Assembly (NCBI GenBank): GCA_905478465.1
Contig: CAJQIN010000009.1
Location: 2,300 to 66,299 of the forward strand
Reading direction: 5' to 3'
From: Minisyncoccota bacterium
GTDB taxonomy: Bacteria; Patescibacteriota; Minisyncoccia; Phycocordibacterales; CAJQIN01
Length of the DNA stretch: 64,000 bases
Positions 7,381-44,810 of the stretch are shown here, piece after piece (the first letter of the stretch is position 1; each line of letters opens with the position of its first letter). A program made the translations under genes and the position numbers. The notes under the pieces were generated by a model. It was given only the letters and a program-made list of their open reading frames with translations, was not told where the DNA came from and did not search any database.

Positions 7381-7575
7381 CTAGTTCCAATCAAACCATA
7401 AAACTATTCCTGCGGCTATCATGATAACAGCAGTTGGCACAACCAATTTCCACAAAATATTATGTAGAAAATCTTGATTTGATTTCGGTTTATTTATAAC
7501 TTTTGACTTTTTAGTAACAATTGAATCCTTTTTTTGATTCTTGAATTCGCGACAAAAAAATTCAGGGTTATCCAC
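7381..7575 (-). CDS. small hypothetical protein with C-terminal TM helix
   Basis: 64-aa ORF in a ~700-bp AT-rich intergenic region. Has a C-terminal hydrophobic helix. No recognisable homology. Confidence 0.25.
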   Translation of the reverse strand: MDNPEFFCREFKNQKKDSIVTKKSKVINKPKSNQDFLHNILWKLVVPTAVIMIAAGIVLWFDWN

Positions 7576-7650
7576 AGTGTGGGTAACCCTGATTTCTTTT
7601 TATGCGCGAAGCGACCAATTTTTGACACAATTACTTGTGAGTCTAAGTTG

Positions 7651-8268: not shown

Positions 8269-8332
8269 TTGATATAAGTAAAATAATAAAAATTATAGGT
8301 CTTAGCATAGGTCCGATACTAAAACCTGTCTG

Positions 8333-8419
8333 CGGAGGGAGAGGGATTCGAACCCTCGGTACCCTTTCGAGCACTCCAGTTTTCAAGACTGGTGCATTCA
8401 ACCTCTCTGCCATCCCTCC
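8333..8419 (-). tRNA. tRNA-Ser: tRNA-Ser (anticodon UGA)
   Basis: Manual fold shows acceptor GGAGGGA/TCCCTCC, a 3-bp D stem, anticodon loop 'cuUGAaa', a long variable arm and a T-loop 'TTCGAAT'. Confidence 0.85.
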
Positions 8420-8471
8420 ATTGGTTGTATGAAATTGTAAATTAACACATTTTTCTCCTTTCGTCTTCCTG

Positions 8472-8696
8472 CTACTTCTTTTCTTTTGGTAGTACTTCAG
8501 ATGACTTTACCTCATACTTGTCTGCTATAAAGAAGATATAGAATATTTCTAGAATAGCAAGGCTATTGATTAACAATAATACAATAAACCACTTTTTGTG
8601 AGAAAGGCGAGATGCTTTCCATAGGGCTACTCCTTTCCAGGGAAGTGACCATAGAGCAAGCAGTACTAATGTTGTTGTATTTATATCTGAAAACAT
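8472..8696 (-). CDS. small hypothetical membrane protein
   Basis: 74 aa with two hydrophobic helices. No recognisable homology. Confidence 0.3.
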   Translation of the reverse strand: MFSDINTTTLVLLALWSLPWKGVALWKASRLSHKKWFIVLLLINSLAILEIFYIFFIADKYEVKSSEVLPKEKK

Positions 8697-8717
8697 ACAA
8701 CAATTAGTCTAGCAGAA

Positions 8718-9182
8718 ATGATACAATGTACAAATATGATAGAGTGGCAAACTTTTGAACACGCACCAGTACAAAGAGGTGCAGATTGGTACTTCGCTAC
8801 AGGACTTATCGTCGTGGCACTTGCTGCTGCTTTAATTATTTTTGGAAATGTTCTACTTGCAGCTGTAATCATCATAGCATTTATTCTGACAGTAGCTGCT
8901 GGAAGAAAAGAACCAAGACAAATACGCGTACGTATTGATGGGGAAGGTGTTTTGATTGAGGATCATTTATACCCTTATGATAATCTGGAAAGTTTTTTTG
9001 TAGATAAAGATCGTGAGGTTCTGTTGTTAAAATCTAAAAAAGTATTCATGCCACATATCGTTGTAATGCTTGCTGATTATGTTGAGGTAGGGGATATATC
9101 TGAAGTACTTGAAGAGAATCTTGAAGAGGAAGAGATGTATGAAAATGTTTTTGAATTGTTTATGGAATACCTGGGCTTTTGA
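8718..9182 (+). CDS. hypothetical membrane protein with acidic C-terminus
   Basis: 154-aa ORF with two TM helices, followed by an E-rich tail. Confidence 0.35.
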   Translation: MIQCTNMIEWQTFEHAPVQRGADWYFATGLIVVALAAALIIFGNVLLAAVIIIAFILTVAAGRKEPRQIRVRIDGEGVLIEDHLYPYDNLESFFVDKDREVLLLKSKKVFMPHIVVMLADYVEVGDISEVLEENLEEEEMYENVFELFMEYLGF

Positions 9183-9216
9183 CGGATGCTGTATTCCTTG
9201 CTATTTTCTTTGTACT

Positions 9217-9288
9217 GTCCCTGTAGTTTAATGGATAGAACTAGAGACTTCTAATCTCTCGATACAGGTTCGATTCCTGTCAGGGGCA
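9217..9288 (+). tRNA. tRNA-Arg: tRNA-Arg (anticodon UCU)
   Basis: Manual cloverleaf shows acceptor GTCCCTG/CAGGGGC, anticodon loop 'cuUCUaa' and T-loop TTCGATT. Length 72 nt. Confidence 0.8.
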
Positions 9289-9295
9289 CAGATAA

Positions 9296-9340
9296 ACAAC
9301 CGGAAAGCGAAAGCTTTCCGGTTGTTGCTATTTGCAGTTT
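9296..9340 (+). terminator. rho-independent terminator after tRNA-Arg
   Basis: Perfect inverted repeat 'aacaaccggaaagc gaaa gctttccggttgtt' followed by a T-rich tract. Confidence 0.65.
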
Positions 9341-9369
9341 TTGCACAGGAATGAAATTATATAAGGTAT

Positions 9370-10140
9370 ATGAAAGACCTAAAACCATTTACACATAAAA
9401 CTATCATGACCGTACTTGCTTTCGTTCTTGCAAGTGGTGGGTATGGTGGATACAGGGTAGTGGAACACTATCAAACATATGGAACTGATTTTGAAACACG
9501 ACCACATCTTGTGGAGGAAGTAATCGACGGAGATACTCTCATCATAGAAAACAATATTCGTATACGTCTTCTGAATATTGATGCACCAGAACAAGATGCT
9601 TGTTATGGAATAGAAGCAAAAGAACAACTTTCAAAACTGGTCCTCGGAAAGAATATTATTTTAGAAAAAGATCAAACAGCTAAAGACTCATTTAATCGAT
9701 TACTTCGATATGTATTTATCCATACCGATAATCCGGAAGGGGATAATGTTTTTCTAAACAAAGAACTTGTGGAAATAGGTGCTGCACGTACTAAATACAT
9801 TGCGCCAAACAGGCGGTATCTCTCATCTCTCCAGGCATCTGAGCGTGAAGCAGAAGAATCTTCTCAAGGTTTATGGAATTCTTGTATACAAGAAGAGGTG
9901 TACAAACTTGATCGTGAACAAGAAAGTGATCCTAATAATCCATATTGTGTCATTAAGGGGAATATTAGTAGCGAATACACTAAAGACTATTTCATACCTG
10001 GATGTCCTAATTATAAGAGAGTGAAAATAGATGCCCGAAAAGGCGAGCAATGGTTCTGTTCTGAAAAAGAAGCACTGGATGCCGGATGGCAACGCAGTGC
10101 TTCATGTTCGAATATTTGGCAATTACAAGAAACTCCTTAG
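9370..10140 (+). CDS. secreted staphylococcal-nuclease (SNase/thermonuclease) homologue with C-terminal Cys-containing 'KGN..YH.PG' module
   Basis: N-terminal signal/TM segment. SNase motifs 'VIDGDT', 'IRLLNIDAPE' and 'GLW'. C-terminal ~80 aa reads 'C.IKGNIS....YF.PGCPNY......E.WFCSEKEA..AGW'. Confidence 0.8.
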   Translation: MKDLKPFTHKTIMTVLAFVLASGGYGGYRVVEHYQTYGTDFETRPHLVEEVIDGDTLIIENNIRIRLLNIDAPEQDACYGIEAKEQLSKLVLGKNIILEKDQTAKDSFNRLLRYVFIHTDNPEGDNVFLNKELVEIGAARTKYIAPNRRYLSSLQASEREAEESSQGLWNSCIQEEVYKLDREQESDPNNPYCVIKGNISSEYTKDYFIPGCPNYKRVKIDARKGEQWFCSEKEALDAGWQRSASCSNIWQLQETP

Positions 10141-10580
10141 GGAGTAATACAGAATGAATCATCTATGGGTCCTGATTGTATTCCAAAATCTGTTCGCTCT
10201 GCTATGAAATAGAAAGCATATTTTGGATTTAATTCTCCACAAACTGTACCTGCTGGAGCAGCTAAGTATGTATAGAAATAAGTATTTGTATTGAGTGGAT
10301 CTTTGGGAAGTATGCCATCAGGGAAACCTTCATCTAGGTCTGAGGCTAGGCTAGACCAATTATTGTAACTATTAGCATCTGTTGTTGGATAATCTCCACT
10401 ATTGCTCGTCGCATATAATTCAAGAGCATTCGATATAGATTTCATATCTGTGATCCTGTTAGCGTCTCTAGCAGACTTTCGTGATTCATTGAAAGTTCCA
10501 AGTGCAATACTTGTGAGGATACTGATAATTGATACTACGACCAGAAGTTCAATGAGTGTAAAACCGTTTATTTTTTTCAT
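10137..10580 (-). CDS. type IV pilin / pseudopilin (prepilin-type N-terminal cleavage/methylation domain)
   Basis: 'MKKINGFTLIELLVVVSIISIL' is a class III signal peptide with the G|FTLIE motif. Confidence 0.85.
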   Translation of the reverse strand: MKKINGFTLIELLVVVSIISILTSIALGTFNESRKSARDANRITDMKSISNALELYATSNSGDYPTTDANSYNNWSSLASDLDEGFPDGILPKDPLNTNTYFYTYLAAPAGTVCGELNPKYAFYFIAERTDFGIQSGPIDDSFCITP

Positions 10581-10588
10581 AGATATAT

Positions 10589-10885
10589 TTATTTTATAAA
10601 TTTACTTGGATAGATGGCTAGTATATCTGGGGGAAGGGTAGCTCGAGCTTCTAAAGAAATGTCTTCTCTGTAGATGACGCGCGGAGTGTTATTCTCTTTA
10701 AAAGAAATAATATATTTTGCTGAAAAGAAGAGAATAATCAGAGAAATAATTAGAAGTAAAATTTCTGCTTGTTTCCGGGTTTTGAGAAGACCTGTTCCTA
10801 ATACGAGACGGATAAGAAAAGGATTTTTTATTGCAGATTTATTTATAGGTTCGTATTTTATTTCTTCAAATTGTACGCTTGCCAT
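10589..10885 (-). CDS. small hypothetical membrane protein upstream of the pilin
   Basis: 98 aa with a central TM helix. No recognisable homology. Confidence 0.3.
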   Translation of the reverse strand: MASVQFEEIKYEPINKSAIKNPFLIRLVLGTGLLKTRKQAEILLLIISLIILFFSAKYIISFKENNTPRVIYREDISLEARATLPPDILAIYPSKFIK

Positions 10886-10977
10886 ATAATGTACATGATA
10901 CTAAACAGGTTCCAGCACGTCCACACTAAAGAAAAAAGAGTTGCGATTTTCTAGAATCTCTTTATAATCGTTTGTAT

Positions 10978-11050
10978 GCGCGATTAGCTCAGTTGGTAGA
11001 GCAACTCATTTACACTGAGAAGGTCGGGAGTTCAAATCTCTCATCGCGCA
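10978..11050 (+). tRNA. tRNA-Val: tRNA-Val (anticodon UAC)
   Basis: Acceptor GCGCGAT/ATCGCGC, D-loop 'AGTTGGTA', anticodon loop 'uuUACac' and T-loop TTCAAAT. Length 73 nt. Confidence 0.8.
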
Positions 11051-11134
11051 CATAAAATTATAGATAGAAGCTGTATACAAGACAGTCTATAATTTGCTAC
11101 TCTTTATGTATTAGTTACTTTATCTATATTAACC

Positions 11135-11416
11135 ATGGACATATCAAGAAAATTTGATGATTTGGTAAGACAAATCGACTCGTATAAGGAAAAGGTTGAA
11201 AAGATGCTACAAACAAGCACTCAATCTGCCCAACAGCAGCTTGATTCTGCTCGAGAAGCGCGACGAAAAGCAGACGCGGATATCTCTTCAGCAGAATCAA
11301 AACAAAGTAGCCTGAGGTCAGAAACGAGTACTTTTGAACGCGAAGCCCAAGAAATAAAGAAAGGATTACAGTCTTTGAAAGGAGAAGCCGAAAATCTAGA
11401 AAAGTCTGCTAAATAG
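11135..11416 (+). CDS. hypothetical coiled-coil protein
   Basis: 93 aa, highly charged and heptad-like. No recognisable homology. Confidence 0.35.
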   Translation: MDISRKFDDLVRQIDSYKEKVEKMLQTSTQSAQQQLDSAREARRKADADISSAESKQSSLRSETSTFEREAQEIKKGLQSLKGEAENLEKSAK

Positions 11417-11421
11417 TACAC

Positions 11422-11706
11422 ATGATCAATACTGAAAAAGAGGTTGAGTGTGTTTTTCGAGGTAAGGTGCAACAAGTTGGCTTCCGGCGCTTTGCCCAAA
11501 AGCATGCAGAAAAGATGGGCCTTGTTGGGTATGCAGAAAATGAAGAAGATGGTAGTCTCACTGTGGTTGCTCAGGGAGAAGAAGCTGATTTACTTTTATT
11601 TATAGACCTTCTAAAAAAAGGTCCATACTTTTCTCGAATAGATTCTTGTAATACACAATGGTCAACTCTCTTGCAAGATTCTTTAATCGATTTTTCAATT
11701 TTTTAA
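11422..11706 (+). CDS. acyP: acylphosphatase
   Basis: 'FRGKVQQVGFRRFA' matches the acylphosphatase signature (V.G.VQGV.FR), and the size fits (~90 aa). Confidence 0.75.
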   Translation: MINTEKEVECVFRGKVQQVGFRRFAQKHAEKMGLVGYAENEEDGSLTVVAQGEEADLLLFIDLLKKGPYFSRIDSCNTQWSTLLQDSLIDFSIF

Positions 11707-11709
11707 ACT

Positions 11710-12435
11710 ATGAACAATATTACTATTCTATACGAAGACGATCAGTCTCTGGTGATAAACAAACCCGCAGGGATGATGGTTCATCCTGACGGAACATCAA
11801 AGGATAAAACTTTGACTGACTGGATTATGGAAAAATATCCAGAACTTGAAAACATTGGCGAAGAGCAAACTCTTCGAACAGGGGAGACCATCAAGCGTCC
11901 TGGTATTGTTCACCGAATCGATAAGGACACCTCAGGTGTTTTGATTATTGCTAAAACACAGGAAGCATTCCTCCATCTGAAAGAACAATTCCAAGAAAGA
12001 ACGGTAGAAAAAGTCTATCAAGCTTTTGTATATGGACATTTTAATGAAGTAGAAGGAATTATCGACAGACCTATCGGAAAGAGTAAGAAAGACTTTCGAC
12101 GATGGTCTGCCCAGAGAGGTGCTCGTGGAACTCTACGAGAAGCAGTCACAGAATATAAAGTATTATTTTCCGCGAAAGAAGTGTCTTTTGTGGAGCTTTT
12201 CCCCAAGACAGGGCGTACTCACCAATTGCGTGTGCATATGAAAGCCATAAACCATCCATTAGTGAGTGATATTTTGTATGCTCCGAGTCATCAGAGTCTT
12301 TTAGGATTTAAGCGTTTGGCGCTCCATGCAAAGAGTGTTTCTTTTAATAGTCTCTCAGGAGATAGGATAGAGATAATAGCCCCGTATCCAGAGGATTTTG
12401 AGCAGGCTGTTGCGGAAATAAAGACCATGTGTTAG
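11710..12435 (+). CDS. RluA-family 23S/tRNA pseudouridine synthase
   Basis: 'HRIDKDTSGVLIIAKT' contains the catalytic Asp motif, and 'HQLRVH' is also present. Confidence 0.85.
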   Translation: MNNITILYEDDQSLVINKPAGMMVHPDGTSKDKTLTDWIMEKYPELENIGEEQTLRTGETIKRPGIVHRIDKDTSGVLIIAKTQEAFLHLKEQFQERTVEKVYQAFVYGHFNEVEGIIDRPIGKSKKDFRRWSAQRGARGTLREAVTEYKVLFSAKEVSFVELFPKTGRTHQLRVHMKAINHPLVSDILYAPSHQSLLGFKRLALHAKSVSFNSLSGDRIEIIAPYPEDFEQAVAEIKTMC

Positions 12436-12449
12436 AGTGGGCCTCACTT

Positions 12450-12938
12450 ATGAATACAATTATTTCACCAGTGAATATTGAGCAACGAAAAAATATTGAC
12501 CTCCAAGCAGGGGATACTGTTCGTGTGCATCAGAAAATTCAAGATAAAGGAAAGACTAGACTTCAGGTTTTTGAAGGTATTGTTCTTGCACGAAAACATG
12601 GAAGTGAAGCAGGAGCTACATTTACCGTACGACGTGTCTCACAGAGTGTTGGGGTAGAAAAGATTTTCCCACTATACTCTCCAAATATCGATAAGATTGA
12701 GGTTGTAAAACGATCAAAGGTTCGACGATCAAAGCTTTATCATATTCGAGAAAAGGCTGCTAAGGAAATCCGTCGACAAATGAGAAATATGGTTATGATG
12801 AATACTGTTATGGATGATGAAGAACCAAAAACAGAAGAAGCTGTTGTTGAGGATGAAGCGGTAACAGAAACTCCAGTAGAAACAGTTCCTGAAAAAGAAG
12901 AGGTTGTTGCGGAAGAGAAAACAGAAGAAGCTAAATAA
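12450..12938 (+). CDS. rplS: 50S ribosomal protein L19 with acidic C-terminal extension
   Basis: '...QVFEGIVLARKHGSEAGATFTVRRVSQSVGVEKIFPLYSP' matches the L19 core. ATG at 12450 chosen over the overlapping upstream ATG. Confidence 0.8.
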   Translation: MNTIISPVNIEQRKNIDLQAGDTVRVHQKIQDKGKTRLQVFEGIVLARKHGSEAGATFTVRRVSQSVGVEKIFPLYSPNIDKIEVVKRSKVRRSKLYHIREKAAKEIRRQMRNMVMMNTVMDDEEPKTEEAVVEDEAVTETPVETVPEKEEVVAEEKTEEAK

Positions 12939-12946
12939 ATAAAATC

Positions 12947-12972
12947 AAAAATACCCGAAAGGGTATTTTTTC
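12947..12972 (+). terminator. rho-independent terminator after rplS
   Basis: 'aaaaatacccgaaagggtattttttc'. Confidence 0.65.
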
Positions 12973-13011
12973 TTGAAAAGGATAAAATATTTGTGCATAA
13001 TGTTTTTGTAT

Positions 13012-13093
13012 GCGCGAGTGGTGAAATTGGTATACACGTACGCATGAGGTGCGTATGCCGTAAGGCGTGGAGGTTCAAGTCCTCTCTCGCGCA
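13012..13093 (+). tRNA. tRNA-Leu: tRNA-Leu (anticodon GAG)
   Basis: Acceptor GCGCGAG/CTCGCGC, anticodon stem tacgc/gcgta, loop 'auGAGgu' and a long variable arm. Confidence 0.75.
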
Positions 13094-13258
13094 CAAAAAG
13101 TAATTCTTTTCAAAAACAATATTAGGTTCCCAAATTTATCTAAAGGTGTATTATTTGTAGTAGATATTGTTTTCATGTCTCTTTTCTCCTGGACTCCTGC
13201 TAGTTGTGACGCCTAGCAGGGTCTTTTTATTTCATCTCTTTTCTGATAAAGTCGATAT

Positions 13259-13819
13259 ATGGCATTATTCACCGGAAAAGGAGATGACGGCACAACAAAG
13301 GTTTTTGATTGTGATCAACGAATATCAAAAAACTCTGCTATGGCAGAGGCACTTGGTGCACTTGATGAAGTAAATTCATTTTTGGGTGTGTGTAAAATTC
13401 AATCAAAAGAACAGAATTATTATGTCGGTATTGAGTATCCGTCTTTTGAGCATATTGTACACACTCTTCAAGAAGGATTATTTGTTGTTCAGGCAGAACT
13501 TGCCGGAGCAGATAAAACAATAAAAGAAGAAAGGGTAAAAGATATGGAAGATTGGATTAATGCGGCAGAAAAAGAAATGCCACCAATCACTACATTTTTT
13601 ATTTCTGGCGGAACAGATCTTGCGACTTCTTTTGATATTGCTCGAACACTTGCTCGACGAGCAGAAAGAAGAGTTGTGGAGGTGAATGATGTTGGCGAGA
13701 GAAAAATAGGGAAGCAGACTCTGGCTTTCCTGAATCGTCTTTCAAGTGTATTATATGCACTTGCTCGACTTTCTAACCATAAATTTGGTATAAAGGAGAG
13801 TGCACCTAAGTATAATTAG
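13259..13819 (+). CDS. PduO-type ATP:cob(I)alamin adenosyltransferase family protein (MMAB-like)
   Basis: 'MALFTGKGDDGTT' N-terminus is characteristic of the PduO/MMAB family. 186 aa. Confidence 0.7.
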   Translation: MALFTGKGDDGTTKVFDCDQRISKNSAMAEALGALDEVNSFLGVCKIQSKEQNYYVGIEYPSFEHIVHTLQEGLFVVQAELAGADKTIKEERVKDMEDWINAAEKEMPPITTFFISGGTDLATSFDIARTLARRAERRVVEVNDVGERKIGKQTLAFLNRLSSVLYALARLSNHKFGIKESAPKYN

Positions 13820-13832
13820 GTGAAAGTAATAT

Positions 13833-13908
13833 GGTGCCTATAGTGTAATGGTTAGCACTGGAGTTTGTGGAACTCCCAGTTCGGGTTCGAATCCCGGTAG
13901 GCACCCCA
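13833..13908 (+). tRNA. tRNA-His: tRNA-His (anticodon GUG) with genomically encoded G-1 and CCA
   Basis: Extra 5' G pairs with discriminator C. Acceptor GTGCCTA/TAGGCAC, anticodon loop 'uuGUGga' and a 3' 'cca'. Confidence 0.8.
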
Positions 13909-28876: not shown

Positions 28877-28930
28877 CCCGCACTTCATATGATATGTATA
28901 CACATATCATATGAAGTGCGGGTTTTTTCT
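28877..28930 (+). terminator. 46-nt perfect palindrome followed by T6 (strong terminator)
   Basis: 'cccgcacttcatatgatatgtatacacatatcatatgaagtgcggg' followed by 'tttttt'. Confidence 0.7.
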
Positions 28931-28951
28931 TTTTCTGCTACTCTATCAGTA

Positions 28952-30667
28952 ATGACTATTCAGGAACAATTAACACAATCTATTAAAGAAGCCCTTTTAA
29001 ATCTTGGTATTGAGGGTATTGAAATACACCTTGAACATCCAACAGAAAACCTGCATGGAGACTTTTCAACTAATGTAGCACTTGCAAGCGCCAAGAAGGT
29101 AGGAAAAAATCCACAAGATGTTGCAGATGACATCATCAGAGAACTTGAAAAAAACAAATTAAATATAATAGAAAAAATAGAAAAAGCCGGACCCGGATTT
29201 ATCAACTTCTACTTAACAAAAGAATTTTTCATACAATCTATAAAAGAAATTTTAGATAATAAAAAAAGTGTAGGATCTAATAATCGATTAAAAAACAAAA
29301 AAGTTCTGATCGAACACACAAGCCCGAATGCTTTTAAGCTTCTGCATATTGGGCACTTCATGGCGAATGCCGTTGGTGAGGCAACAGCAAGACTTCTTGA
29401 GTATTCTGGAGCAGAAGTAAAGCGCGCAACATATGCAAGTGATATAGGTCTGCCCGTGGCTAAAGCTGTGTGGGGAATGATGCAGATGCAGGCTGAGATG
29501 CCAGAAGATACGGATAGTGTTTCAAGAAAAGTTGAGTTCATTGGCAATGCATATACACATGGTGCGGGAATGTATGAGAGTGATGAAGAAATAAAAAAAC
29601 AGATTGATGAGATAAATATTCATATCTATAAAAAAGATGATGAGGATATAATATCTCTGTATACCAAAGGACGAGCTTGGAGCTTGATGTATCTCGAGGA
29701 AATGTACAAAAAACTAGATACTAATTTTGATTATCGTTTTTTTGAGAGTGAAGTATTTGATGAAGGGTCTCGAATAGTACGAGCACATCTCGGAAAAGTA
29801 TTTGAAGAAAGTGAGGGAGCTATTGTTTTCAAAGGAGAAGACTACGGATTACATACCAGAGTATTCATTAGTTCAAAGGGTGCGCCAACCTATGAGGCAA
29901 AAGAGCTTGGACTACAAACAAAGAAAGCAGAAATACCCTATGACATTTCTATTGTGGTAACTGGCAATGAACAGTCTGCTGTAATGGAGGTAGGACTGAA
30001 GGCTTTTGAGCAGATTGATGCTGAACGGGCGAATAAAACTGAACACATTAGCCACGGACTGATGCTTGGAAAAAATGGAAAAAAGATGTCTTCCCGAAAA
30101 GGAGGTTCACTTTCTGCAGAAGAACTAATTGAGAGTGTAAAAACAGAAGTACTGAAGAAAATGAAAGAAGGTGAAGATGTTCTTTCAAACATAGAGGAAG
30201 TGGCAGAAAAGGTGGCAGTAGGAGCGCTAAAGTATCAGATACTGAAACAAGGTTCAGGAAAAAATATTGTTTTTGATATTGAACAGGCACTTTCTTTTGA
30301 AGGAGACTCGGGTCCATATTTGCAATATACATATGCACGAACAAATTCACTTTTGGAAAAAGGAAAAGAAGCTGGAATTGAAATAAAAACAGGGGTGTAC
30401 GAAGCAAGTGCGGAATCTGTTTATAAACTTATATACCAATTCTCTGAGGTGGTGGAACGAGCCGGTGAGGAATACACACCTCAAACTGTCACTACATTTC
30501 TAATGGAACTTGCATCAAGATTCAATGCCTATTATGCAGGAGAAAAAATCATTGATATAGAAAAAAAAGAAAAAAGTTCTGAGAAACTGGCACTTGTTGA
30601 TGCTGTGAATACTGTACTCAAGAGGGGACTTGTTGTGCTGGGAATACCTGCGGTGGAAAGAATGTAG
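28952..30667 (+). CDS. argS: arginyl-tRNA synthetase
   Basis: 'TSPNAFKLLHIGH' HIGH motif and 'KKMSSRKG' (KMSKS-like). Start moved to the ATG after the palindrome. Confidence 0.9.
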   Translation: MTIQEQLTQSIKEALLNLGIEGIEIHLEHPTENLHGDFSTNVALASAKKVGKNPQDVADDIIRELEKNKLNIIEKIEKAGPGFINFYLTKEFFIQSIKEILDNKKSVGSNNRLKNKKVLIEHTSPNAFKLLHIGHFMANAVGEATARLLEYSGAEVKRATYASDIGLPVAKAVWGMMQMQAEMPEDTDSVSRKVEFIGNAYTHGAGMYESDEEIKKQIDEINIHIYKKDDEDIISLYTKGRAWSLMYLEEMYKKLDTNFDYRFFESEVFDEGSRIVRAHLGKVFEESEGAIVFKGEDYGLHTRVFISSKGAPTYEAKELGLQTKKAEIPYDISIVVTGNEQSAVMEVGLKAFEQIDAERANKTEHISHGLMLGKNGKKMSSRKGGSLSAEELIESVKTEVLKKMKEGEDVLSNIEEVAEKVAVGALKYQILKQGSGKNIVFDIEQALSFEGDSGPYLQYTYARTNSLLEKGKEAGIEIKTGVYEASAESVYKLIYQFSEVVERAGEEYTPQTVTTFLMELASRFNAYYAGEKIIDIEKKEKSSEKLALVDAVNTVLKRGLVVLGIPAVERM

Positions 30668-31065
30668 TATTTGACAAATTTATATTTTTAGGCATTATGA
30701 AACTTAGACAAAGGGTGTTCTTTTGTGTGTTTTAATATTCTATTTTTTACATAAGGAAATGTATCATTGCAAAAAAAAGAAACACAATGTGATCAGGTTG
30801 ATTGGGTGATGAAGGCAGTTGAACAGACTAAGAAACGTCTAGAGAAAATAGCTCAAACACTATGGTTAAATCAAGAGTCGGTTCAGCAATCCAGTGTTCA
30901 TTAATGACAAGGAGGTCGAATGCAAAGAAGACGAATATTTTTGAGACGTACGTGTCTTTTTATTGTGGCACTTCTTCAGTATAGATTACATCTTGTTAAA
31001 ACAAAAAAACTGAAAGGTCTTCATTTGGTGAAATAGGGTAGATTAAGGATTGTGATTTTATCTTG

Positions 31066-31097
31066 CGCGATAACAGAGGTTGTCGCGCTTTTTTCTT
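31066..31097 (+). terminator. rho-independent terminator in argS-ileS intergenic region
   Basis: 'gcgcgataacagaggttgtcgcgc' followed by 'ttttttc'. Confidence 0.55.
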
Positions 31098-31176
31098 GAC
31101 AAAATCTAATTTTACTGTAATATCTTGCGAAGCGTTATATTTTTAGATTCATGGTTCTTTTTTGAAAGGTATTGAA

Positions 31177-31395
31177 ATGGCAGAACAAGATCCCGGTATT
31201 GAAGAAGCGTTGGTGAAAGCTTATCGGAAAAATTATTCCGAAAGTACCAAAGGTCGGGATGATGACTGTGTGCTGCAAATGATTCGTAATCTGACAAGCC
31301 ATTGTTTTAACACACTGTGCCAGAATGCCGGTATTCCTGATTCTGAAGCACGTTTGTGGCAGGAGCAACAATTTGATGTTCCTGTGTCGGCATAA
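31177..31395 (+). CDS. small hypothetical protein, compositionally atypical (GC-richer, different codon usage)
   Basis: 72-aa ORF 'MAEQDPGIEEALVKAYRKNY...'. GC is visibly higher than its surroundings, with frequent ctg/ccg/gcg codons. Followed by its own terminator. Confidence 0.4.
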   Translation: MAEQDPGIEEALVKAYRKNYSESTKGRDDDCVLQMIRNLTSHCFNTLCQNAGIPDSEARLWQEQQFDVPVSA

Positions 31396-31420
31396 AACGG
31401 ATTCTGTTTCATTTTCTGCG

Positions 31421-31453
31421 AAAACACGCCTCTTTATAAGAGCGTGTTTTTTT
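31421..31453 (+). terminator. rho-independent terminator
   Basis: 'aaaacacgcctctttataagagcgtgttttttt'. Confidence 0.65.
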
Positions 31454-31478
31454 ATTGCTCCCAAAATGCTAGTATTCT

Positions 31479-34400
31479 TTGTATATTATGAGTGAAGAAC
31501 AGAAATCTGATATCGCCAAGAGGGAAGAGGAAATCTTGTCTTTTTGGCAAAAAAACGATATTTTCAAAAAAAGTCTCGCAAAACCTGCACCCGGAGGTAA
31601 TTTTGTTTTTTATGATGGGCCTCCTTTTGCCACAGGTCTTCCTCATTATGGACACATTCTAGCTGGAACAATGAAGGATGTTATTCCCCGATATCAAACA
31701 ATGAAAGGAAAATATGTTCGACGTGTTTGGGGATGGGATTGCCATGGTCTACCTATTGAAAAACTGATTCAAGAAGAATTAGGTGTAAAAACAAAAGCAG
31801 ATATCGAGGATCTTGGTATAGAAAAATTTAATGAATCAGCACGTTCAAGTGTTTTTCGGTATGATCGTGAGTGGCAAAAAGTTGTGCCACGTACTGGACG
31901 CTTCGTGGACATGGAGAATCAATACACAACCATGGATCCAAACTTTACCGAATCTGTGTGGTGGGGATTTAAGGAGATTCATAAGAAAGGCTTGGTGTAT
32001 GAAGATTTTAAATCTATGCATCTTTCTCCGCTTCTTGAAACACCTCTTTCTAACTTTGAGGTTAATCAGAATTATAAAGATATAGAAGATATTTCTATCT
32101 ATGTGGAATTTCGATTACTTGATGAACCGGACACATCTCTCATTGCTTGGACAACGACACCGTGGACCATTCCTGGAAATGTAGCTTTGGCTGTAGGAGA
32201 AGATATTGAATATGTCGAAATAGAAAAAAAGGATGAGGGAGATGTAAAATTCATTCTTGCTAAAGAACGTCTTAAAGATGTCCTGAAAGACAGCGAGTAT
32301 GAAATCACGCGTACTTTTAAAGGAAAAGATCTAATCGGAAAATCATACAAACCAGTCTTTGACTGCTATGCAAACGATGAAACTCTAGAAAACCGAGAAA
32401 ATGGCTGGAAGGTATATGGTGCAGATTTTGTAACCACGGAAGACGGAACAGGAATCGTGCACATTGCACCTGCTTTCGGAGAAGATGACTTGTTATTGGG
32501 TAGGGAACATAACCTTCCTTTTGTTCAGCATGTCAAAATGGACGGAACTATAAAACCAGAAGTAGCCGAATTTGCTGGTCGACAAGCAAAACCAAAAAGT
32601 ACTAAAGAAGAGCCAAAGAAACATCAAGAAACTGATATTGAAGTATTGAAAGTAATTGCCCATAAAGGATTTTTGTTCGCAAAAGAAAAATACACCCACT
32701 CATATCCACATTGTTGGAGAACAGATGCTCCGCTTCTAAACTACGCTATGAGTTCCTGGTTTATTAAAGTTACCGAAATAAAAGATGCACTGATACGAGA
32801 AAACCAAACAACTAACTGGGTACCGAAGGATATAAAAGATGGACGTTTTGGAAAGTGGCTTGAAGGTGCACGTGACTGGGCTATTTCTCGAAATCGATAT
32901 TGGGGCGCACCTATACCTATTTGGCAATCTGAGGACAAAAAAGAAACAGAAGTGATTGGATCTATTGCAGAACTACAAGAAAAAAGACCAGATCTTCTCA
33001 GAGATATATACGTCATGCGTCACGGGGAGAGTGAAAAAAATATTCTTGGTTTGTATGATAAGGAACTTGAAAAATATCCATTGACTGAAAAGGGAAGAGA
33101 ACAGGTGCAGACATCTGTTCAAGGTCTAAAAGAATCTGGTATTGATATGATCATTTCTTCCCCAGTTCTTCGTGCCCGAGAAACAGCAGAGATTGTCGGA
33201 AAAGGTCTGGGACTTGATGTGGAAATTCGCCAAGAACTAATGGAAGTTGATAGCGGGGAATGGGATGGGGAAAAGGAAAAAGATATTGCTGAGAAAAATA
33301 CCTATAACCTTTCTTCTGATGAAGACTACTACACTACCAAACGCGGTGAGACAGGGGAGTCTTGGCAGAGTGTGGAAGATCGAGCCAAAAGTTTCGTTGA
33401 GGGTATTTTAAAAGAATTTCCAGGAAAGAAAATACTTCTTGTGACACACGGAGGAGTGATTTTGTATATGGTAAAACATCTGAAAAGGCTTTCTGTTGCT
33501 CAAACAAGAAAATTATTTGATGTTTCTACATACGACTCGTATGCAACAGCATCACATTTTGTAGTGGATATGAATACTGGAAAAGCCTTTGATTTCCACC
33601 GACCATATATAGATAACATCACATGGAAAAATAAAGATGGTCAGGAAATGAAACGCATTGAAGCTGTATTTGATACATGGATTGATTCTGGTTCAATGCC
33701 TTTTGCTCAAGTGCATTATCCATTTGAAAATAAAGAATCTTTTGAGCAAAAAGATAGCCCTCTTTTTCCAGCAGATTTTATTGCTGAAGGGCTTGATCAG
33801 ACTCGCGGATGGTTTTACACACTTATGGTTCTGAATACAGGTCTTTTTGATAGGACGCCTTTTAAGAACGTTATCGTGAATGGTCTTGTTCTTGCTGAAG
33901 ATGGAAAGAAGATGTCAAAGAGTTTGAAAAACTATCCTGATGTTTTTGATATTTTCAATAAATATGGAGCAGATGCTATGCGTTATTACATGCTGGCATC
34001 TCCTATTGTGAAAGCTGAGGACTTAGCTTTTTCTGAAAAAGGAGTTGATGAAGTAGTAAAAAAAATAATACGTCGATTAAAAAATGTTTATTCTTTTTAT
34101 GAACTATATAAAACAGAAGATGCACAAACAGCATGTCCAGAAAGCACTAACGTACTCGATACTTGGTTATTGGCACGATTAACAGAACTCGGGGGAGAGG
34201 TAACACGTTCTCTGGATTCATTTGAACTTGATAGGGCAACTCGACCTTTTGGAGATTTTGTGGATGACCTGTCTACCTGGTATCTTCGACGTTCACGAGA
34301 TCGAGTAAAAGGAGACGACGAAGTAGACAAGCGTTATGCATTAGAAACTCTTTCTTTTGTATTGAGAGAAGTATCAAAATATCTGGCACCATTTATGCCA

Positions 34401-34988
34401 TTTTTGGCAGAAGACTTGTATCAGAGTTTGAAACTTGAGTCAGATGTTGAAAGTGTTCACCTTGAGAACTGGCCAGAAACAAAAGAATTAACTGAGGATC
34501 AGAAAGAAAACATTATATTAATGAAGGAAACTCGAGAGGTTATTTCTTTGGCCCTTGAATTACGTTCAAAATCTGGAATAAAAGTACGACAACCTCTGCA
34601 GAAAGTTACTATTGATAATAAAAATCTAACAGGAAAAGATAGCCTTCTTGATCTTGTAAAAGATGAGATGAATGTAAAAGAAGTGATTGTTGGAGATGAA
34701 CTTTCTTTGGATACTGTTATTACACCAGTATTAAAAGAAGAGGGAGCCGTGCGAGATATCATACGAGCAGTACAAGACTTGCGAAAGAAAACAGATCTTG
34801 TGCCTGATGATGTTATTTCATTAAATTTTGATACTTCAGAATCTGTAAAGAAAATAATTGAAACCTATATACAAGATCTTCAAAAACAAGTGAATGCTGT
34901 ATCTGTTGATTTTGCTGCTACTGAAGGAACACTTGTCCAAACTGAATGTGGTGATGTTTCTATCTCCCTACAAAAAGTATCTACATAA
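31479..34988 (+). CDS. ileS: isoleucyl-tRNA synthetase (type 2) carrying an inserted histidine-phosphatase (PGAM/SixA-like) domain
   Basis: 'PPFATGLPHYGHIL' (HIGH), 'WAISRNRYWGAPIPIW' and 'KKMSKSLKNYPD'. An in-frame ~195-aa insertion at nt ~33005..33590 contains 'VMRHGESEKN', 'SSPVLRARETA' and 'LLVTHGGVI'. Confidence 0.9.
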   Translation: MYIMSEEQKSDIAKREEEILSFWQKNDIFKKSLAKPAPGGNFVFYDGPPFATGLPHYGHILAGTMKDVIPRYQTMKGKYVRRVWGWDCHGLPIEKLIQEELGVKTKADIEDLGIEKFNESARSSVFRYDREWQKVVPRTGRFVDMENQYTTMDPNFTESVWWGFKEIHKKGLVYEDFKSMHLSPLLETPLSNFEVNQNYKDIEDISIYVEFRLLDEPDTSLIAWTTTPWTIPGNVALAVGEDIEYVEIEKKDEGDVKFILAKERLKDVLKDSEYEITRTFKGKDLIGKSYKPVFDCYANDETLENRENGWKVYGADFVTTEDGTGIVHIAPAFGEDDLLLGREHNLPFVQHVKMDGTIKPEVAEFAGRQAKPKSTKEEPKKHQETDIEVLKVIAHKGFLFAKEKYTHSYPHCWRTDAPLLNYAMSSWFIKVTEIKDALIRENQTTNWVPKDIKDGRFGKWLEGARDWAISRNRYWGAPIPIWQSEDKKETEVIGSIAELQEKRPDLLRDIYVMRHGESEKNILGLYDKELEKYPLTEKGREQVQTSVQGLKESGIDMIISSPVLRARETAEIVGKGLGLDVEIRQELMEVDSGEWDGEKEKDIAEKNTYNLSSDEDYYTTKRGETGESWQSVEDRAKSFVEGILKEFPGKKILLVTHGGVILYMVKHLKRLSVAQTRKLFDVSTYDSYATASHFVVDMNTGKAFDFHRPYIDNITWKNKDGQEMKRIEAVFDTWIDSGSMPFAQVHYPFENKESFEQKDSPLFPADFIAEGLDQTRGWFYTLMVLNTGLFDRTPFKNVIVNGLVLAEDGKKMSKSLKNYPDVFDIFNKYGADAMRYYMLASPIVKAEDLAFSEKGVDEVVKKIIRRLKNVYSFYELYKTEDAQTACPESTNVLDTWLLARLTELGGEVTRSLDSFELDRATRPFGDFVDDLSTWYLRRSRDRVKGDDEVDKRYALETLSFVLREVSKYLAPFMPFLAEDLYQSLKLESDVESVHLENWPETKELTEDQKENIILMKETREVISLALELRSKSGIKVRQPLQKVTIDNKNLTGKDSLLDLVKDEMNVKEVIVGDELSLDTVITPVLKEEGAVRDIIRAVQDLRKKTDLVPDDVISLNFDTSESVKKIIETYIQDLQKQVNAVSVDFAATEGTLVQTECGDVSISLQKVST

Positions 34989-34991: not shown

Positions 34992-35585
34992 ATGGCATAT
35001 CATGTGCATAAGACATTAGGATTTGTGCTTGCAAGTATTCCTGTAAAAGAAGCAAATACTTTTGTTATTGTTTTCACTAGAGAGCTTGGATTGATTAAGG
35101 CTCAGGCACAAGGAACACAGAAAGTTGCCTCAAAACTTCGATATGGCTTACAGAAGTTTTCTTTTTCACAACTCTCATTTATATACGGAAAACACACATG
35201 GAAAGTAACAAATGTGGTTCCACTTGAGAATATTTTTTACTTACTCCAAGAAAAAAAAGAAAAGTTACTTGTATGTGCACACGTGAGTGTCCTTCTGCAA
35301 AGATTCCTAACCGGTGAAGAAAAGAATGAAGAGTTATTTGATTTGGTTATGGATGCAATGCTTTTTCTTGGAGAAAATAATATATCTCAAGAAGACCTTT
35401 CTTCCTTTGAATATCTTTTTGTCCTACGTATTTTATATAATTTAGGATATATAAGTGGTACAGGGGAGCTTGAACATTTAGCACGTGGTACTGAGTGGGG
35501 TACGGAGTATTTGGCACGCCTTGCAAAACAAAAAAAAGAAGTAGTCTCGGCTATTAACCGCGCTATTTCAGAGAGTCAGCTATAA
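34992..35585 (+). CDS. recO: DNA repair protein RecO (short form, OB-fold + helical domain, no C-terminal zinc finger)
   Basis: '...GFVLASIPVKEANTFVIVFTRELGLIKAQAQGTQK' resembles the RecO N-terminal OB fold. 'FEYLFVLRILYNLGY' resembles the RecO helical region. Confidence 0.55.
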   Translation: MAYHVHKTLGFVLASIPVKEANTFVIVFTRELGLIKAQAQGTQKVASKLRYGLQKFSFSQLSFIYGKHTWKVTNVVPLENIFYLLQEKKEKLLVCAHVSVLLQRFLTGEEKNEELFDLVMDAMLFLGENNISQEDLSSFEYLFVLRILYNLGYISGTGELEHLARGTEWGTEYLARLAKQKKEVVSAINRAISESQL

Positions 35586-42244: not shown

Positions 42245-43318
42245 ATGTATATGAATACATCCAAAAAAGACCACGTTGTGTTTCAAATAGACACAATGAG
42301 TGTTGTTAGAGTCATCCTTGTTATTTTTCTTTTCGCTGCTGCTTATGTATTACGAGATTTACTCCTGATACTACTTGCAGCTGTAGTTATTGCTTCAGCT
42401 ATTGAACCTATGGTGAAGTGGTTTCGACAATATCGAGTTGCACGTTTACCTGCAGTAATGGCTATTTATCTATCTCTGGCGGTGCTCATTGTGGCAGCGA
42501 CATCATTTCTACTTATTCCATTACTTAACGAAACATCGTCCCTTCTTAACCGTTTGCCAGAATATGTAAGTTCAGTAAATCTATGGGAGCCATTAGGGAA
42601 TGATTCTATTATCGGATCACAACAATTCATACAAAACCTTTCTGCCAATTTCTCAGTACAAGATATTGTCACACAGGTGCAGTCTTTCACAAATAATATT
42701 TCTGCCGGTATCTTTTCTACAATAAGTCTTTTGTTTGGAAGTTTGATAAGTTTCTTGCTTATTGCTGTTATTTCTTTCTACTTAGCTGTACAAGAAGATG
42801 GTATTCATAATTTTCTCAAAACAATTACCCCAAATGACCACCGAGAATATGTTCTTGATTTGTGGAAGCGATCACAGAAAAAAATTGGACTCTGGTTTCA
42901 AGGACAATTACTTCTGGTGGTCATTATTGCTGTATTAACATATCTAGGACTTGCTTTGATTGGCGTTGAGTATGCTTTAGCACTAGCTGTTCTTGCGGGG
43001 CTCTTTGAACTCATTCCACTCTTCGGACCTATTCTTGCTGCTATTCCTGCTATTGCTTTGGCATTTCTTGCTGACGGTCCCACTACAGCTCTTATCGTTC
43101 TTGCTTTCTATATTGTTATTCAACAATTTGAAAATCAACTAATTTATCCGCTGGTGGTGAAGAAGGTGGTAGGGGTACCTGCTATTATTGTTATCGTAGC
43201 CCTTATTGCTGGAGGAACACTGGCTGGATTTTTTGGAATGTTGCTCTCAGTCCCTATTGCTGCTATTTTGATGGAGCTCTTTACTGATATGCAGAAGGGG
43301 GTTTTTGCTCGAAAATAA
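42245..43318 (+). CDS. AI-2E family transporter (PerM/UPF0118)
   Basis: Eight or so TM helices. C-terminal 'IPLFGPILAAIPAIALAF...YPLVVKKVVGVPA' is typical of AI-2E. Confidence 0.7.
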   Translation: MYMNTSKKDHVVFQIDTMSVVRVILVIFLFAAAYVLRDLLLILLAAVVIASAIEPMVKWFRQYRVARLPAVMAIYLSLAVLIVAATSFLLIPLLNETSSLLNRLPEYVSSVNLWEPLGNDSIIGSQQFIQNLSANFSVQDIVTQVQSFTNNISAGIFSTISLLFGSLISFLLIAVISFYLAVQEDGIHNFLKTITPNDHREYVLDLWKRSQKKIGLWFQGQLLLVVIIAVLTYLGLALIGVEYALALAVLAGLFELIPLFGPILAAIPAIALAFLADGPTTALIVLAFYIVIQQFENQLIYPLVVKKVVGVPAIIVIVALIAGGTLAGFFGMLLSVPIAAILMELFTDMQKGVFARK

Positions 43319-43331
43319 TACTATTAAACAC

Positions 43332-44810
43332 ATGAAAGAATCTTTTTACATAACAACCACATTACCGTATGTGAATGCTAAGCCTCATATAGGGCACGCA
43401 CTTGAATTTATTCGTGCTGATGCTATTGCTCGCTACAAAGCACTTCAAGGACATCCTGTATTTTTCAACACTGGAGCAGATGAACATGGATTAAAAATAT
43501 ACCAAAAAGCCCAAGCTGAAGGGAAAGAAATACAAACATATGTTGACGAAAATGCTGAACACATAAAGACCATGATTGAAATGTTGGGTATGGCAACTGA
43601 TGTACCTAATATAACTTTCAATTTTAGTCGCACAACTGATGAAAAGCATATTAAAGCAGCACAAAAATTCTGGAAGTTGTGTGATGAAAAAGGATTTATT
43701 GAAAAACGAACATATAAAGGTTTGTATTGTGTTGGTGATGAACTTTTCATGACAGAAAAAGAGTTAGTGAATGGTCGTTGTCCTAATCATCCCGATCAAG
43801 AACTCGAAGAAATTGAAGAAGAGAATTACTTTTTCAAAGCAAGTAGTTTTACCGAAAGACTTCTTGAAGAATATGAAAAGAACCCACAATTCATTTTGCC
43901 AGAGGCTCGCCTGAATGAGATGAAATCTCTTTTGAAACAACATGGACTGGAAGATTTCAGTATCTCTCGGGTGAAAGAAAAAATGCCTTGGGGAGTACCG
44001 GTACCAGGAGATGAAGACCAGGTGATGTATGTATGGTTTGACGCTCTGATCAACTATATTGTAGCTATTGGATGGCCTGATGATATGGAGAGTTTTGAGA
44101 AGTGGGGAAGAATGACTCAGTATTGCGGAAAGGATAACACTCGACAACAAAGTGCTATGTGGCAAGCGATGTTGTTATCTGTCGGATTGCCTCTATCAAA
44201 GCAAATTATTGTGAATGGTTTTGTAACGGCCGAGGGTGGGATAAAAATGTCGAAGTCTCTTGGAAATGTTGTTGATCCTGTGGAACTCATTAATGAATAT
44301 GGAACTGATGCTCTTCGATACTATGTTCTTCGTGAAGTGCATCCATTTGAGGATTCTGCTTTTACTCTAGAGCGTTTCAAAGAAACCTATAATGCAAACT
44401 TGGTTAACGGACTTGGAAATCTTCTTTCCCGAGTTTTGAAAATGTCAGAAGATTTTGGTGTTCAATATACTGAAGAACAGATAGGGGAGATTATTGAGCG
44501 TATTGAAGAAGATGTATTTGAACTAAACCGAGAATATCGAACAAGTATAGAAAGCTTTAACCTTATGTCCGCTATGGATGAAATTTGGAAAGAGGTAAAG
44601 TCAGCAGATACCTTTATTCAAGAAACAGCTCCTTTCAAGATGGTAAAAGAAAACAAAACAAAAGCACAAGAGGATGTCTATACATGTATACTCTCTCTGA
44701 TTAAAATAGCCCACATGCTTAGGCCAATGATGCCTGATACTGCGGAGAAGATGTTTAAGTCTATTCGTGTCAATAAAAAACCAGAAGAATCTTTGTTTCC
44801 GAGGAAATAA
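43332..44810 (+). CDS. metG: methionyl-tRNA synthetase
   Basis: 'TTTLPYVNAKPHIGHALEFI' HIGH region and 'KMSKSLGNVVDP'. Confidence 0.92.
   Translation: MKESFYITTTLPYVNAKPHIGHALEFIRADAIARYKALQGHPVFFNTGADEHGLKIYQKAQAEGKEIQTYVDENAEHIKTMIEMLGMATDVPNITFNFSRTTDEKHIKAAQKFWKLCDEKGFIEKRTYKGLYCVGDELFMTEKELVNGRCPNHPDQELEEIEEENYFFKASSFTERLLEEYEKNPQFILPEARLNEMKSLLKQHGLEDFSISRVKEKMPWGVPVPGDEDQVMYVWFDALINYIVAIGWPDDMESFEKWGRMTQYCGKDNTRQQSAMWQAMLLSVGLPLSKQIIVNGFVTAEGGIKMSKSLGNVVDPVELINEYGTDALRYYVLREVHPFEDSAFTLERFKETYNANLVNGLGNLLSRVLKMSEDFGVQYTEEQIGEIIERIEEDVFELNREYRTSIESFNLMSAMDEIWKEVKSADTFIQETAPFKMVKENKTKAQEDVYTCILSLIKIAHMLRPMMPDTAEKMFKSIRVNKKPEESLFPRK

Follow-up and report, generated by a model that had tools for sequence, protein, structure and literature searches.

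Why would an isoleucyl-tRNA synthetase (IleRS) carry a second enzyme within its own catalytic body? The question is raised by the ileS gene of a Minisyncoccota bacterium (assembly GCA_905478465.1, contig CAJQIN010000009.1), which we analysed within a stretch of 64,000 nucleotides (positions 2,300 to 66,299 of the contig) referred to below as the window. Coordinates are those of the window unless another locus is named, and ileS, its parts and its two flanking genes all lie on the forward (+) strand. Aminoacyl-tRNA synthetases are among the best-studied enzymes, and the domains added to them are normally RNA-binding, editing or protein-interaction modules; to our knowledge, no second enzyme of different chemistry has been described nested in the catalytic body of a synthetase. 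An initial annotation of the window, made from its letters, had proposed that a histidine-phosphatase domain is inserted in frame into IleRS and was not aware of any earlier report of a phosphatase embedded in an aminoacyl-tRNA synthetase. We too found no description of one, in IleRS or in another synthetase, in the literature searched, the coverage of which was incomplete. The results presented here indicate that the phosphatase domain is very probably real, ancient and functionally coupled to IleRS.

Results

A histidine phosphatase in the CP3 subdomain of IleRS

The ileS open reading frame (ORF; 31479..34988) is continuous over 3510 nt in the ORF list and encodes 1169 amino acids (aa) followed by a stop codon; the listed start is a TTG at 31479, and an alternative ATG is found at codon 4 (31488). 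When the product was aligned to human cytoplasmic IleRS (9w01_B), residues 13-501 corresponded to human residues 13-490 and residues 700-1072 to human residues 493-883, leaving about 198 residues in the window enzyme where the human one has about 2. The insert delimited by this alignment covers aa 502-699 (32982..33575), and the His_Phos_1 domain proper (Pfam PF00300) occupies aa 510-679 within it (33006-33515). The IleRS of a Moraniibacteriota locus (L078), which has no insert, confirms the short linker at this point ('...SSQKELKERSGKELPDLHKPYIDDI'), as the initial annotation had expected of reference type-2 enzymes. That annotation had given the limits of the domain as 33005-33590. The region is right; however, a reading begun at 33005, the third base of codon 509, is out of frame (16 stops), and 33590 lies five codons into conserved IleRS sequence.

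The insert follows a beta-hairpin and a helix (PIPIW...GSIAELQE) and precedes the motif DFHRPYID. This context places it in the connective-peptide subdomain CP3, in a peripheral loop outside the core Rossmann strands; the earlier description of an insertion inside the catalytic core thus holds for the catalytic body but not for the core strands themselves. The names of the IleRS domains are taken from PMC7955072 and PMC7191050. The CP2-3 linker 'ARDWNVSRNRYWG' forms part of the wall of the tRNA CCA-end/reveromycin pocket, and CP3 comes directly after it (ScIleRS 459-526; PMC7955072); in Thermus thermophilus IleRS, CP3 holds a zinc-binding motif (PMC7191050). Cysteine pairs on either side of the insert (484/487 and 718/720), found in 60 of 121 family members, correspond to this CP3 zinc knuckle, and all four cysteines have been lost in the window IleRS (32925-32945, aa 483-489, and 33627-33640, aa 717-721). 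The GC content of the insert, 0.37-0.41, is no different from that of the rest of ileS.

The profile search that the initial annotation had suggested bears out its assignment of the insert to the histidine phosphatase superfamily. PF00300 matched with E=3e-40 (138.4 bits) in the whole protein and with E=8e-42 (143.5 bits) in the excised segment, for a gathering threshold of 21.7 bits, over profile positions 1-169 of 194. Among solved chains, those of CobC, PspA and PhoE matched the insert with E=7e-16 to 2e-13, the lowest value being that of CobC 6NRU. The catalytic set is complete. The motif RHGESEKN (aa 514-521; 33018..33041) supplies R514, the nucleophile H515 (33021-33023), G516 and N521; the second phosphate-binding arginine, R565 (33171..33173), stands within SSPVLRARETA (aa 560-570; 33156-33188); the putative general acid/base, E589 (33243..33245), within EVDSGEWDG; and the second catalytic histidine, H657 (33447..33449), within VTHGG (aa 655-659; 33441-33455).

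These residues are kept throughout the family. R514, H515, R565, E589 and R635 were present in 121 of 121 full-length homologues, H657 and E627 each in 120, and N521 in 118. Among 267 copies located at this position of IleRS, which we call site a, the arginine and the histidine of the RHG motif, the second arginine and the second histidine were each found in 266, and the glutamate position held E in 258 copies and D in 6. The mean pairwise identity of the phosphatase domain is 40%, while that of the IleRS core is 62-68%, and the domain changes as fast as the least constrained IleRS domain. Such a pattern points to a fast-evolving domain whose chemistry is under strict constraint. As judged from these residues, the embedded phosphatase is catalytically intact and apparently active.

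The comparison of the insert with specific family models supports well its placement among the branch-1 histidine phosphatases, closest to broad-specificity enzymes of the PhoE/CobC/PspA type. No specific model reached its cut-off. The best of them, CobC (TIGR03162), gave 100.5-105.4 bits for a cut-off of 162.9, and the second-best NCBIfam match of the insert, RNase H/acid phosphatase (PRK07238), 92-96 bits for a cut-off of 326. PspA scored 77 bits against 350, and among the dPGM models (TIGR01258, NF038349 and related) pgm_1 scored 33 bits against 81.7 and dPGM_arch 89-93 against 225. The 'SixA-like' label given in the initial annotation has to be dropped, the SixA model (TIGR00249) scoring 37-40 bits for a cut-off of 74.5 with a match confined to the first 78 residues. 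A known IleRS family with an embedded GNAT domain, NF040702 (ileS_w_GNAT), was likewise rejected for the window protein (299 bits for a cut-off of 1999), in which no GNAT match was present. As no equivalog cut-off was passed, the substrate of the phosphatase cannot be assigned by homology.

A structure prediction, also suggested by the initial annotation, was run with AlphaFold2 on a 68-sequence alignment and gave a confident model of the IleRS, with a mean predicted local distance difference test (pLDDT) of 91.2 and a predicted template modelling score (pTM) of 0.83. Over the insert the pLDDT was 81-97, with aa 505-700 forming a confident, alternating pattern of strands and helices. A Foldseek search with the whole model returned only IleRS structures. 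The modelled body superimposed on 8C8U/8C8V, 8WND, 7D5C and 1ILE with target-normalised TM-scores of 0.78-0.87; the extra domain is present in none of them.

The host protein is a type-2 IleRS

On both sides of the insert the protein reads as an ordinary type-2 enzyme, as the initial annotation had concluded. TIGR00392 gave 881.3 bits (cut-off 621.4) in two blocks, one on each side of the insert (NCBIfam), and Pfam recognised tRNA-synt_1 (aa 19-503 and onward, on both sides), His_Phos_1, Anticodon_1 and DUF5915 (aa 1076-1164); the frame is continuous and the flanks are conserved, again as had been claimed. The best sequence and fold matches were the human, yeast, Priestia megaterium (IleRS2) and T. 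thermophilus enzymes, type-1 enzymes scoring far lower, and the C-terminus is of the DUF5915 type and not a type-1 zinc-binding domain.

All the motifs quoted for a type-2 enzyme were found. The N-terminal part (aa 1-501; 31479..32981) comprises the first half of the Rossmann fold with HYGH (aa 56-59; 31644-31655), the CP1 editing domain with WTTTPWT (aa 224-230; 32148-32168) and GTGIVH (aa 323-328; 32445-32462), CP2, the CP2-3 linker WAISRNRYWGAPIPIW (aa 467-482; 32877-32924) and the start of CP3, ending in GSIAELQE (32958-32981). The C-terminal part (aa 700-1169; 33576..34985), delimited by Pfam, the human IleRS alignment, the fold search and motifs, holds the remainder of CP3 with DFHRPYID (aa 705-712; 33591-33614), the second half of the Rossmann fold with FPADFIAEG/GLDQTRGWF (33765-33815) and KMSKS (aa 811-815; 33909-33923), the stem-contact fold, the anticodon-binding domain and the DUF5915 C-terminus. 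H56, G58, H59, K811, M812 and K814 were invariant in 68 homologues; the two CP1 editing motifs were invariant across the family, and the isolated T. thermophilus editing domain 1WK8 matched aa 198-411. There is one ileS in the 64-kb window. By these matches its product belongs to the type-2 isoleucyl-tRNA synthetases, and the view that it is a working enzyme, the standard inherited IleRS of a large clade of Patescibacteria, is well supported by sequence comparison.

Assembly artefacts and inteins

An unusual architecture of this kind might be a chimeric assembly, a frameshifted gene pair, an intein or a mobile insertion mistaken for a real feature. Beyond its prior probability nothing favours this explanation, the frameshifts seen in one related locus (L001) reflecting the quality of that assembly. 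Against it, the ileS ORF is uninterrupted, and a separate ENA contig (P0001) is identical over the left junction, between the N2 segment and the phosphatase. The 120 best full-length matches to the full-length query (52-71% identity, 1137-1325 aa), which come from NCBI, JGI, ENA and Logan and lie on contigs of up to 981 kb, all contained PF00300 as well as the IleRS domains. When 1.84 billion cluster representatives were searched exhaustively, 188 clusters at 50% identity matched with E<=1e-30, most of which span the insert and both flanks in one stretch, and 177 full-length proteins could be classified with custom segment profiles (N1-CP1-N2-HP-C1-ABD-Cter). More than 170 independent full-length homologues are thus on record in the four sources. 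A misassembly was rejected in view of the many independent contigs with the same architecture. An intein was rejected too, the Pfam scan giving no Hint or intein family; the insert starts with KRPDLL and ends in ...VVDMN before TGK, with no N-terminal Cys/Ser, no penultimate His and no splice-junction residues. As to a mobile element or a target-site duplication, we found only short chance repeats near the boundaries and a uniform GC content. As far as sequence data allow, an artefact is refuted, in agreement with the initial annotation, which had argued against both a fusion artefact and an intein; the chance that one accounts for the feature is negligible.

Spread of the architecture and other insertion sites

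A search of related genomes, which the initial annotation had called for, recovered the same insertion in all 120 best homologues and, at site a, in about 40 GTDB species representatives. The groups concerned are the Paceibacteria, the Taylor-, Nomura-, Specht-, Wildermuth-, Buchanan-, Moran- and Magasanik-bacteria, the Peribacteria, the Minisyncoccia and the Gracilibacteria. On this evidence the nested phosphatase is the standard IleRS architecture of a large clade of Patescibacteria and not a one-off. The species representatives come from a scan of one genome per species (185,579 species) with an alignment of the phosphatase only, of which we classified the best 80 loci. Among these, IleRS was the only IleRS-sized host; the other loci held free genes, about 190-280 aa long, and two proteins of about 450 aa from Thermoleophilia. 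In these two proteins (L059:3628-5025 and L069:3682-5025), the only other multi-domain context among the best 80, the phosphatase is C-terminal to a part of about 270 aa.

Site a is not the only position used. Mapping with segment profiles and Pfam located the phosphatase in at least five IleRS loops, site a and at least four others, with one to four copies per protein. At site b, the boundary between the stem-contact fold and the anticodon-binding domain, it is found in P0333, P0365 and L001, whose CP3 linker is normal and short; the P0333 gene is intact, encodes 1273 aa and lies on an NCBI contig of 267 kb. The site-b IleRS of L001 (2799-6437; Logan ERR14373514) is broken into several gene calls by frameshifts, most likely a sequencing or assembly error and not a natural split gene. 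A third position, site c, is the loop from PFENK to FPADFIAEG (P0384, P0319 and P0322), and in P0260 the phosphatase sits upstream of the N2 segment. Some proteins hold more than one copy. P0242 (1419 aa) has the phosphatase at both site a and site b, and in P0251 (1468 aa) site a holds a first and a second copy in tandem, each belonging to an orthologous group of its own across proteins. The largest set was found in a Gracilibacteria locus read with genetic code 25 (L072:2776-9270; JANPGO010000063), where a single ORF encodes an IleRS of 2165 aa with four phosphatase domains: two at site a, one in the loop just before the KMSKS strand and one at site b. In this protein each of the two site-a copies is followed by a repeat of the host motif LHKPYID..ILAP, and an additional segment, about 200 aa long and containing the motif GSLGG, matches PF06821 Ser_hydrolase weakly (22.5 bits, cut-off 22).

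The catalytic residues are kept at every site, the catalytic arginine and histidine being retained in every copy outside site a. Copies within one protein share 23-36% identity, which indicates old, retained events. Pairwise identities between site-a copies and those at other sites are saturated, at 30-45% in every comparison, so that duplication and independent capture look alike. All the insertion sites are variable surface loops of the catalytic body, and no N- or C-terminal fusion of the phosphatase to IleRS was found among the classified full-length proteins and the best 80 loci.

Free-standing phosphatases and companion domains next to ileS

In the window, ileS is preceded by argS (28889..30667), a conserved ArgRS gene without a phosphatase domain, and followed by recO (34992..35585; RecO_N and RecO_C). 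The order argS...ileS also occurs in L002, L078 and L076, and L002 has recO as a neighbour as well. Between argS and ileS of the window lies a spacer of 811 bp (30668..31478) in which the ORF list holds no convincing ORF. Its position is that of a free phosphatase gene in L078 (JBDTWF010000022; 4471-8631), where argS is followed by a phosphatase gene of 202 aa (4471-5079), an insert-less ileS (5063-8095) that this gene overlaps by 17 nt, and a NUDIX gene (8092-8631) that overlaps the ileS stop codon. We rejected the idea that the window spacer is a decayed free phosphatase gene, as no phosphatase remnant was matched in any of its six frames; nor did the spacer give a credible Rfam match to a regulatory RNA.

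Free copies near ileS were found in other genomes as well. In L076 the order is argS, a free phosphatase gene and, 2.2 kb further on, an insert-less ileS, while in L015 and L002 a free copy stands just upstream of an ileS that itself carries the insert. The nearest IleRS to the insert-less ones of L078 and L076 is that of L045, a Moranbacteria enzyme with the insert (54-58%), and within the Moranbacteria clade the free and embedded phosphatases are reciprocal closest relatives. For the free copies of L002 and L015, the nearest sequences are embedded copies from other lineages (50-56%). Taken together, the reciprocal relationships and the adjacency show that the free-adjacent and nested states have been interconverted, always in association with ileS.

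A few IleRSs have gathered further domains. NUDIX domains lie inside CP1, alongside the phosphatase, in P0345 (aa 226-343) and P0388 (aa 270-396); a GNAT domain lies inside CP1 alongside a CP3 phosphatase in P0199 (aa 285-415); and in L072 an ORF with a Nudix box is located about 650 bp upstream of ileS. These cases are few and point the same way as L078, towards a gathering of nucleotide-directed hydrolases on IleRS.

The phosphatase domain is absent from the ArgRS and the MetRS of the window, the latter (43272-44807; 512 aa; PF09334, E=6e-92) having no inserted domain, and it is thus confined to IleRS among the class I synthetases of the window. In two Thermoplasmatota (L042:3099-5696 and L056:4456-7080) a CysRS gene is preceded, at a distance of about 600 bp, by a free phosphatase of the same subfamily; the two archaeal genomes are related, and this may be a single, perhaps coincidental arrangement. 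Elsewhere in the window, five tRNA genes (Ser-TGA, Arg-TCT, Val-TAC, Leu-GAG and His-GTG) form a loose cluster at 8332-13908, and the 5' end of a 23S rRNA gene (63853-64000) runs off the window end.

Discussion

Comparison with known enzymes

The whole body of the window IleRS is like that of the known type-2 enzymes (P. megaterium IleRS2, 8C8U/8C8V; T. thermophilus, 1ILE; yeast cytoplasmic IleRS, 7D5C and 8WND), with which it shares the HIGH and KMSKS motifs, the CP1 editing motifs, the CP2-3 linker, the anticodon-binding domain and the DUF5915-type C-terminus, and whose sequences it matches with E=1e-205 to 1e-226. The difference lies at the CP3 point, where the solved enzymes have a short linker or a zinc knuckle and the window enzyme has a separate enzyme domain of 198 residues. 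In the same way, PhoE (1H2E), CobC (6NRU and 6E4B) and PspA (4IJ5) resemble the insert in size (about 190 aa), in catalytic set and probably in fold family, but they are free-standing, whereas the window phosphatase is nested in another enzyme.

The closest architectural analogues are the actinobacterial RNase H/acid-phosphatase fusions and the GNAT-containing IleRSs, and neither nests a histidine phosphatase in a synthetase. PRK07238, the actinobacterial bifunctional RNase H/acid phosphatase of the Rv2228c and SCO2299 type, covalently joins a CobC-like histidine phosphatase to a nucleic-acid enzyme, as is the case here; that fusion is end to end, however, while the domain of the window is nested in a synthetase. 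NF040702 offers a precedent for a catalytic domain embedded in IleRS, with another domain at another insertion site. An ATP-using catalytic domain and a histidine-phosphatase domain are also combined in one polypeptide in PFK-2/FBPase-2 and in PPIP5K/Vip1. There the domains are in tandem and the phosphatase reverses the product of its partner, whereas the window phosphatase is nested and IleRS makes no phosphomonoester product.

A possible role in cis on nucleotide or tRNA ends

What, then, would a phosphatase do on IleRS? We tentatively favour a role as an accessory enzyme acting in cis with IleRS on a phosphomonoester of the nucleotide type, or a tRNA end, handled at the synthetic site. This is possible, and we would not call it probable. 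The preferred substrate would be a tRNA(Ile) whose CCA end carries a 3'(2')-phosphate and is not chargeable. H515 would take the phosphate with E589 as general acid/base, and a chargeable 3' end would be restored on the same enzyme that then aminoacylates the tRNA(Ile); where a NUDIX domain or gene is present, it would first trim a 3'-pyrophosphate to the monophosphate. Several observations lead to this proposal. Among synthetases the coupling singles out IleRS, and within IleRS the catalytic body; the closest characterised relatives, CobC and PhoE, act on ribose or sugar phosphates; the NUDIX partners could convert a pyrophosphate to a monophosphate; and isoacceptor-specific toxins that pyrophosphorylate the CCA end exist: the toxSAS FaRel2 pyrophosphorylates the 3' end (CCA) of tRNAGly and tRNAThr and thereby blocks their charging (PMC11559606). 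In addition, an overlapping upstream gene would most easily give rise to a terminal fusion, and the fact that none was seen suggests that placement on the catalytic body matters.

In its most specific form, the proposal describes a composite IleRS that repairs and then charges its tRNA, the phosphatase, with NUDIX where present, stripping from the tRNA(Ile) CCA end the 3'-(pyro)phosphate left by a toxSAS or a nuclease. We regard this form as speculative and decidedly improbable. If true, tRNA ends would be healed in a new, enzyme-embedded way that also serves as a counter-measure in conflicts between host and symbiont or with phages, and the repeated insertions and multiple copies would reflect selection for that activity. 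A number of points weigh against action on a nucleotide or a tRNA end. With a median pI of about 6, the embedded domains are mildly acidic and not obvious RNA binders on their own, and we know of no branch-1 histidine phosphatase that acts on RNA ends. A general repair of tRNA ends would not obviously be limited to IleRS, and a single step in cis does not readily account for two to four copies per enzyme. The insertion sites may simply be tolerant places, and the association with NUDIX amounts to four or five cases.

Alternative roles

Some of these same observations would fit a domain that has little or nothing to do with tRNA ends. Aminoacyl-tRNA synthetases make Ap4A from the aminoacyl-adenylate, and the phosphatase, together with NUDIX, might serve in nucleotide housecleaning, degrading by-products or look-alikes of adenylation and so clearing the IleRS site or recycling nucleosides in organisms that depend on salvage; candidates are nucleotides derived from Ap4A or Ap3A, AMP, 2'- or 3'-phosphorylated adenosine nucleotides and compounds of the ADP-ribose type. 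The acidity of the domains suits such a role, as do the presence of NUDIX beside or inside some phosphatase-bearing IleRSs, the activity of the nearest characterised relatives on small phosphorylated ribose or sugar compounds, and the extra capacity that several copies would bring. A diffusible substrate, however, requires neither a covalent link to IleRS nor a restriction to IleRS among the synthetases, histidine phosphatases cut terminal monoesters and not Ap4A, and the NUDIX partner is found in a minority only; we consider housecleaning rather unlikely. We hold in about the same regard the idea of a passenger, that is, a general sugar-phosphate or phosphoglycerate phosphatase/mutase unrelated to aminoacylation, which would at first have been co-transcribed with ileS as its neighbour and later been taken up by loops that tolerate insertions, IleRS giving it nothing but expression and stability in very small genomes. 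Consistent with a passenger, broad-specificity family models match with no specific equivalog passed, all the sites are variable loops, the evolutionary rate of the phosphatase is that of the least constrained IleRS domain, and these IleRSs have also accepted GNAT, NUDIX and possibly a serine hydrolase. Yet the dPGM models score far under their cut-offs, and the phosphatase has been retained repeatedly, at five or more sites and in up to four copies with its catalytic residues intact, has passed between free and embedded states always beside ileS, and shows neither terminal fusions nor use of other host proteins among the best 80 loci. Repeated retention, interconversion and host restriction together are more than neutral capture predicts.

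Two further explanations seem to us more doubtful still. Some branch-1 members are protein phosphatases (SixA, PGAM5 and Sts), and phosphorylation of a loop at the ATP site is how HipA/HipT toxins inactivate GltX and TrpS. A built-in protein phosphatase could make the synthetase self-reactivating by dephosphorylating IleRS at an inhibitory site, such as a serine close to the KMSKS loop that a regulatory kinase or a toxin kinase of the HipA type has modified. This would account for the strict coupling to IleRS and for the location of all the insertion sites on the catalytic body, but no kinase partner was seen in the neighbourhoods examined, the SixA model stays below its cut-off and covers the first 78 residues only, and the association with NUDIX does not fit; such a role is improbable. 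IleRS is also a frequent target of natural products, and the GNATs MccE and RimL detoxify mimics of aminoacyl-adenylates. The phosphatase, with GNAT or NUDIX in some lineages, could defend the synthetase on target by inactivating a phosphorylated or nucleotide-mimicking inhibitor of IleRS, and it is true that all three domains modify small molecules, that all three have been found embedded in these IleRSs and that several copies would raise the local capacity. No IleRS inhibitor bearing a phosphomonoester is known, however, the argument is wholly inferential, and near-universal vertical inheritance over a large clade resembles housekeeping more than sporadic resistance. We judge antibiotic defence to be no better a candidate than the built-in protein phosphatase.

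Significance

The architecture has been in the public record since the first genomes of the group were deposited, its entries carrying generic labels ('class I tRNA ligase family protein', 'Isoleucine-tRNA ligase' and 'histidine phosphatase family protein, partial', for instance). Current pipelines often assign no more than a class I tRNA ligase or histidine phosphatase family name, so that an essential ileS can be missed when the completeness or metabolism of these genomes is analysed. Selection for the pairing is suggested by its wide conservation in Patescibacteria, its occupation of at least five loops in up to four copies and its alternation with a neighbouring or overlapping gene; given so many sites, the presence of several copies and the Rosetta-stone pattern, a functional link is not easily dismissed. 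The question becomes which phosphorylated molecule IleRS, apparently alone, must handle in minimal symbiotic bacteria, and the answer could reveal a new route of tRNA damage and repair, a new form of synthetase quality control or a resistance mechanism.

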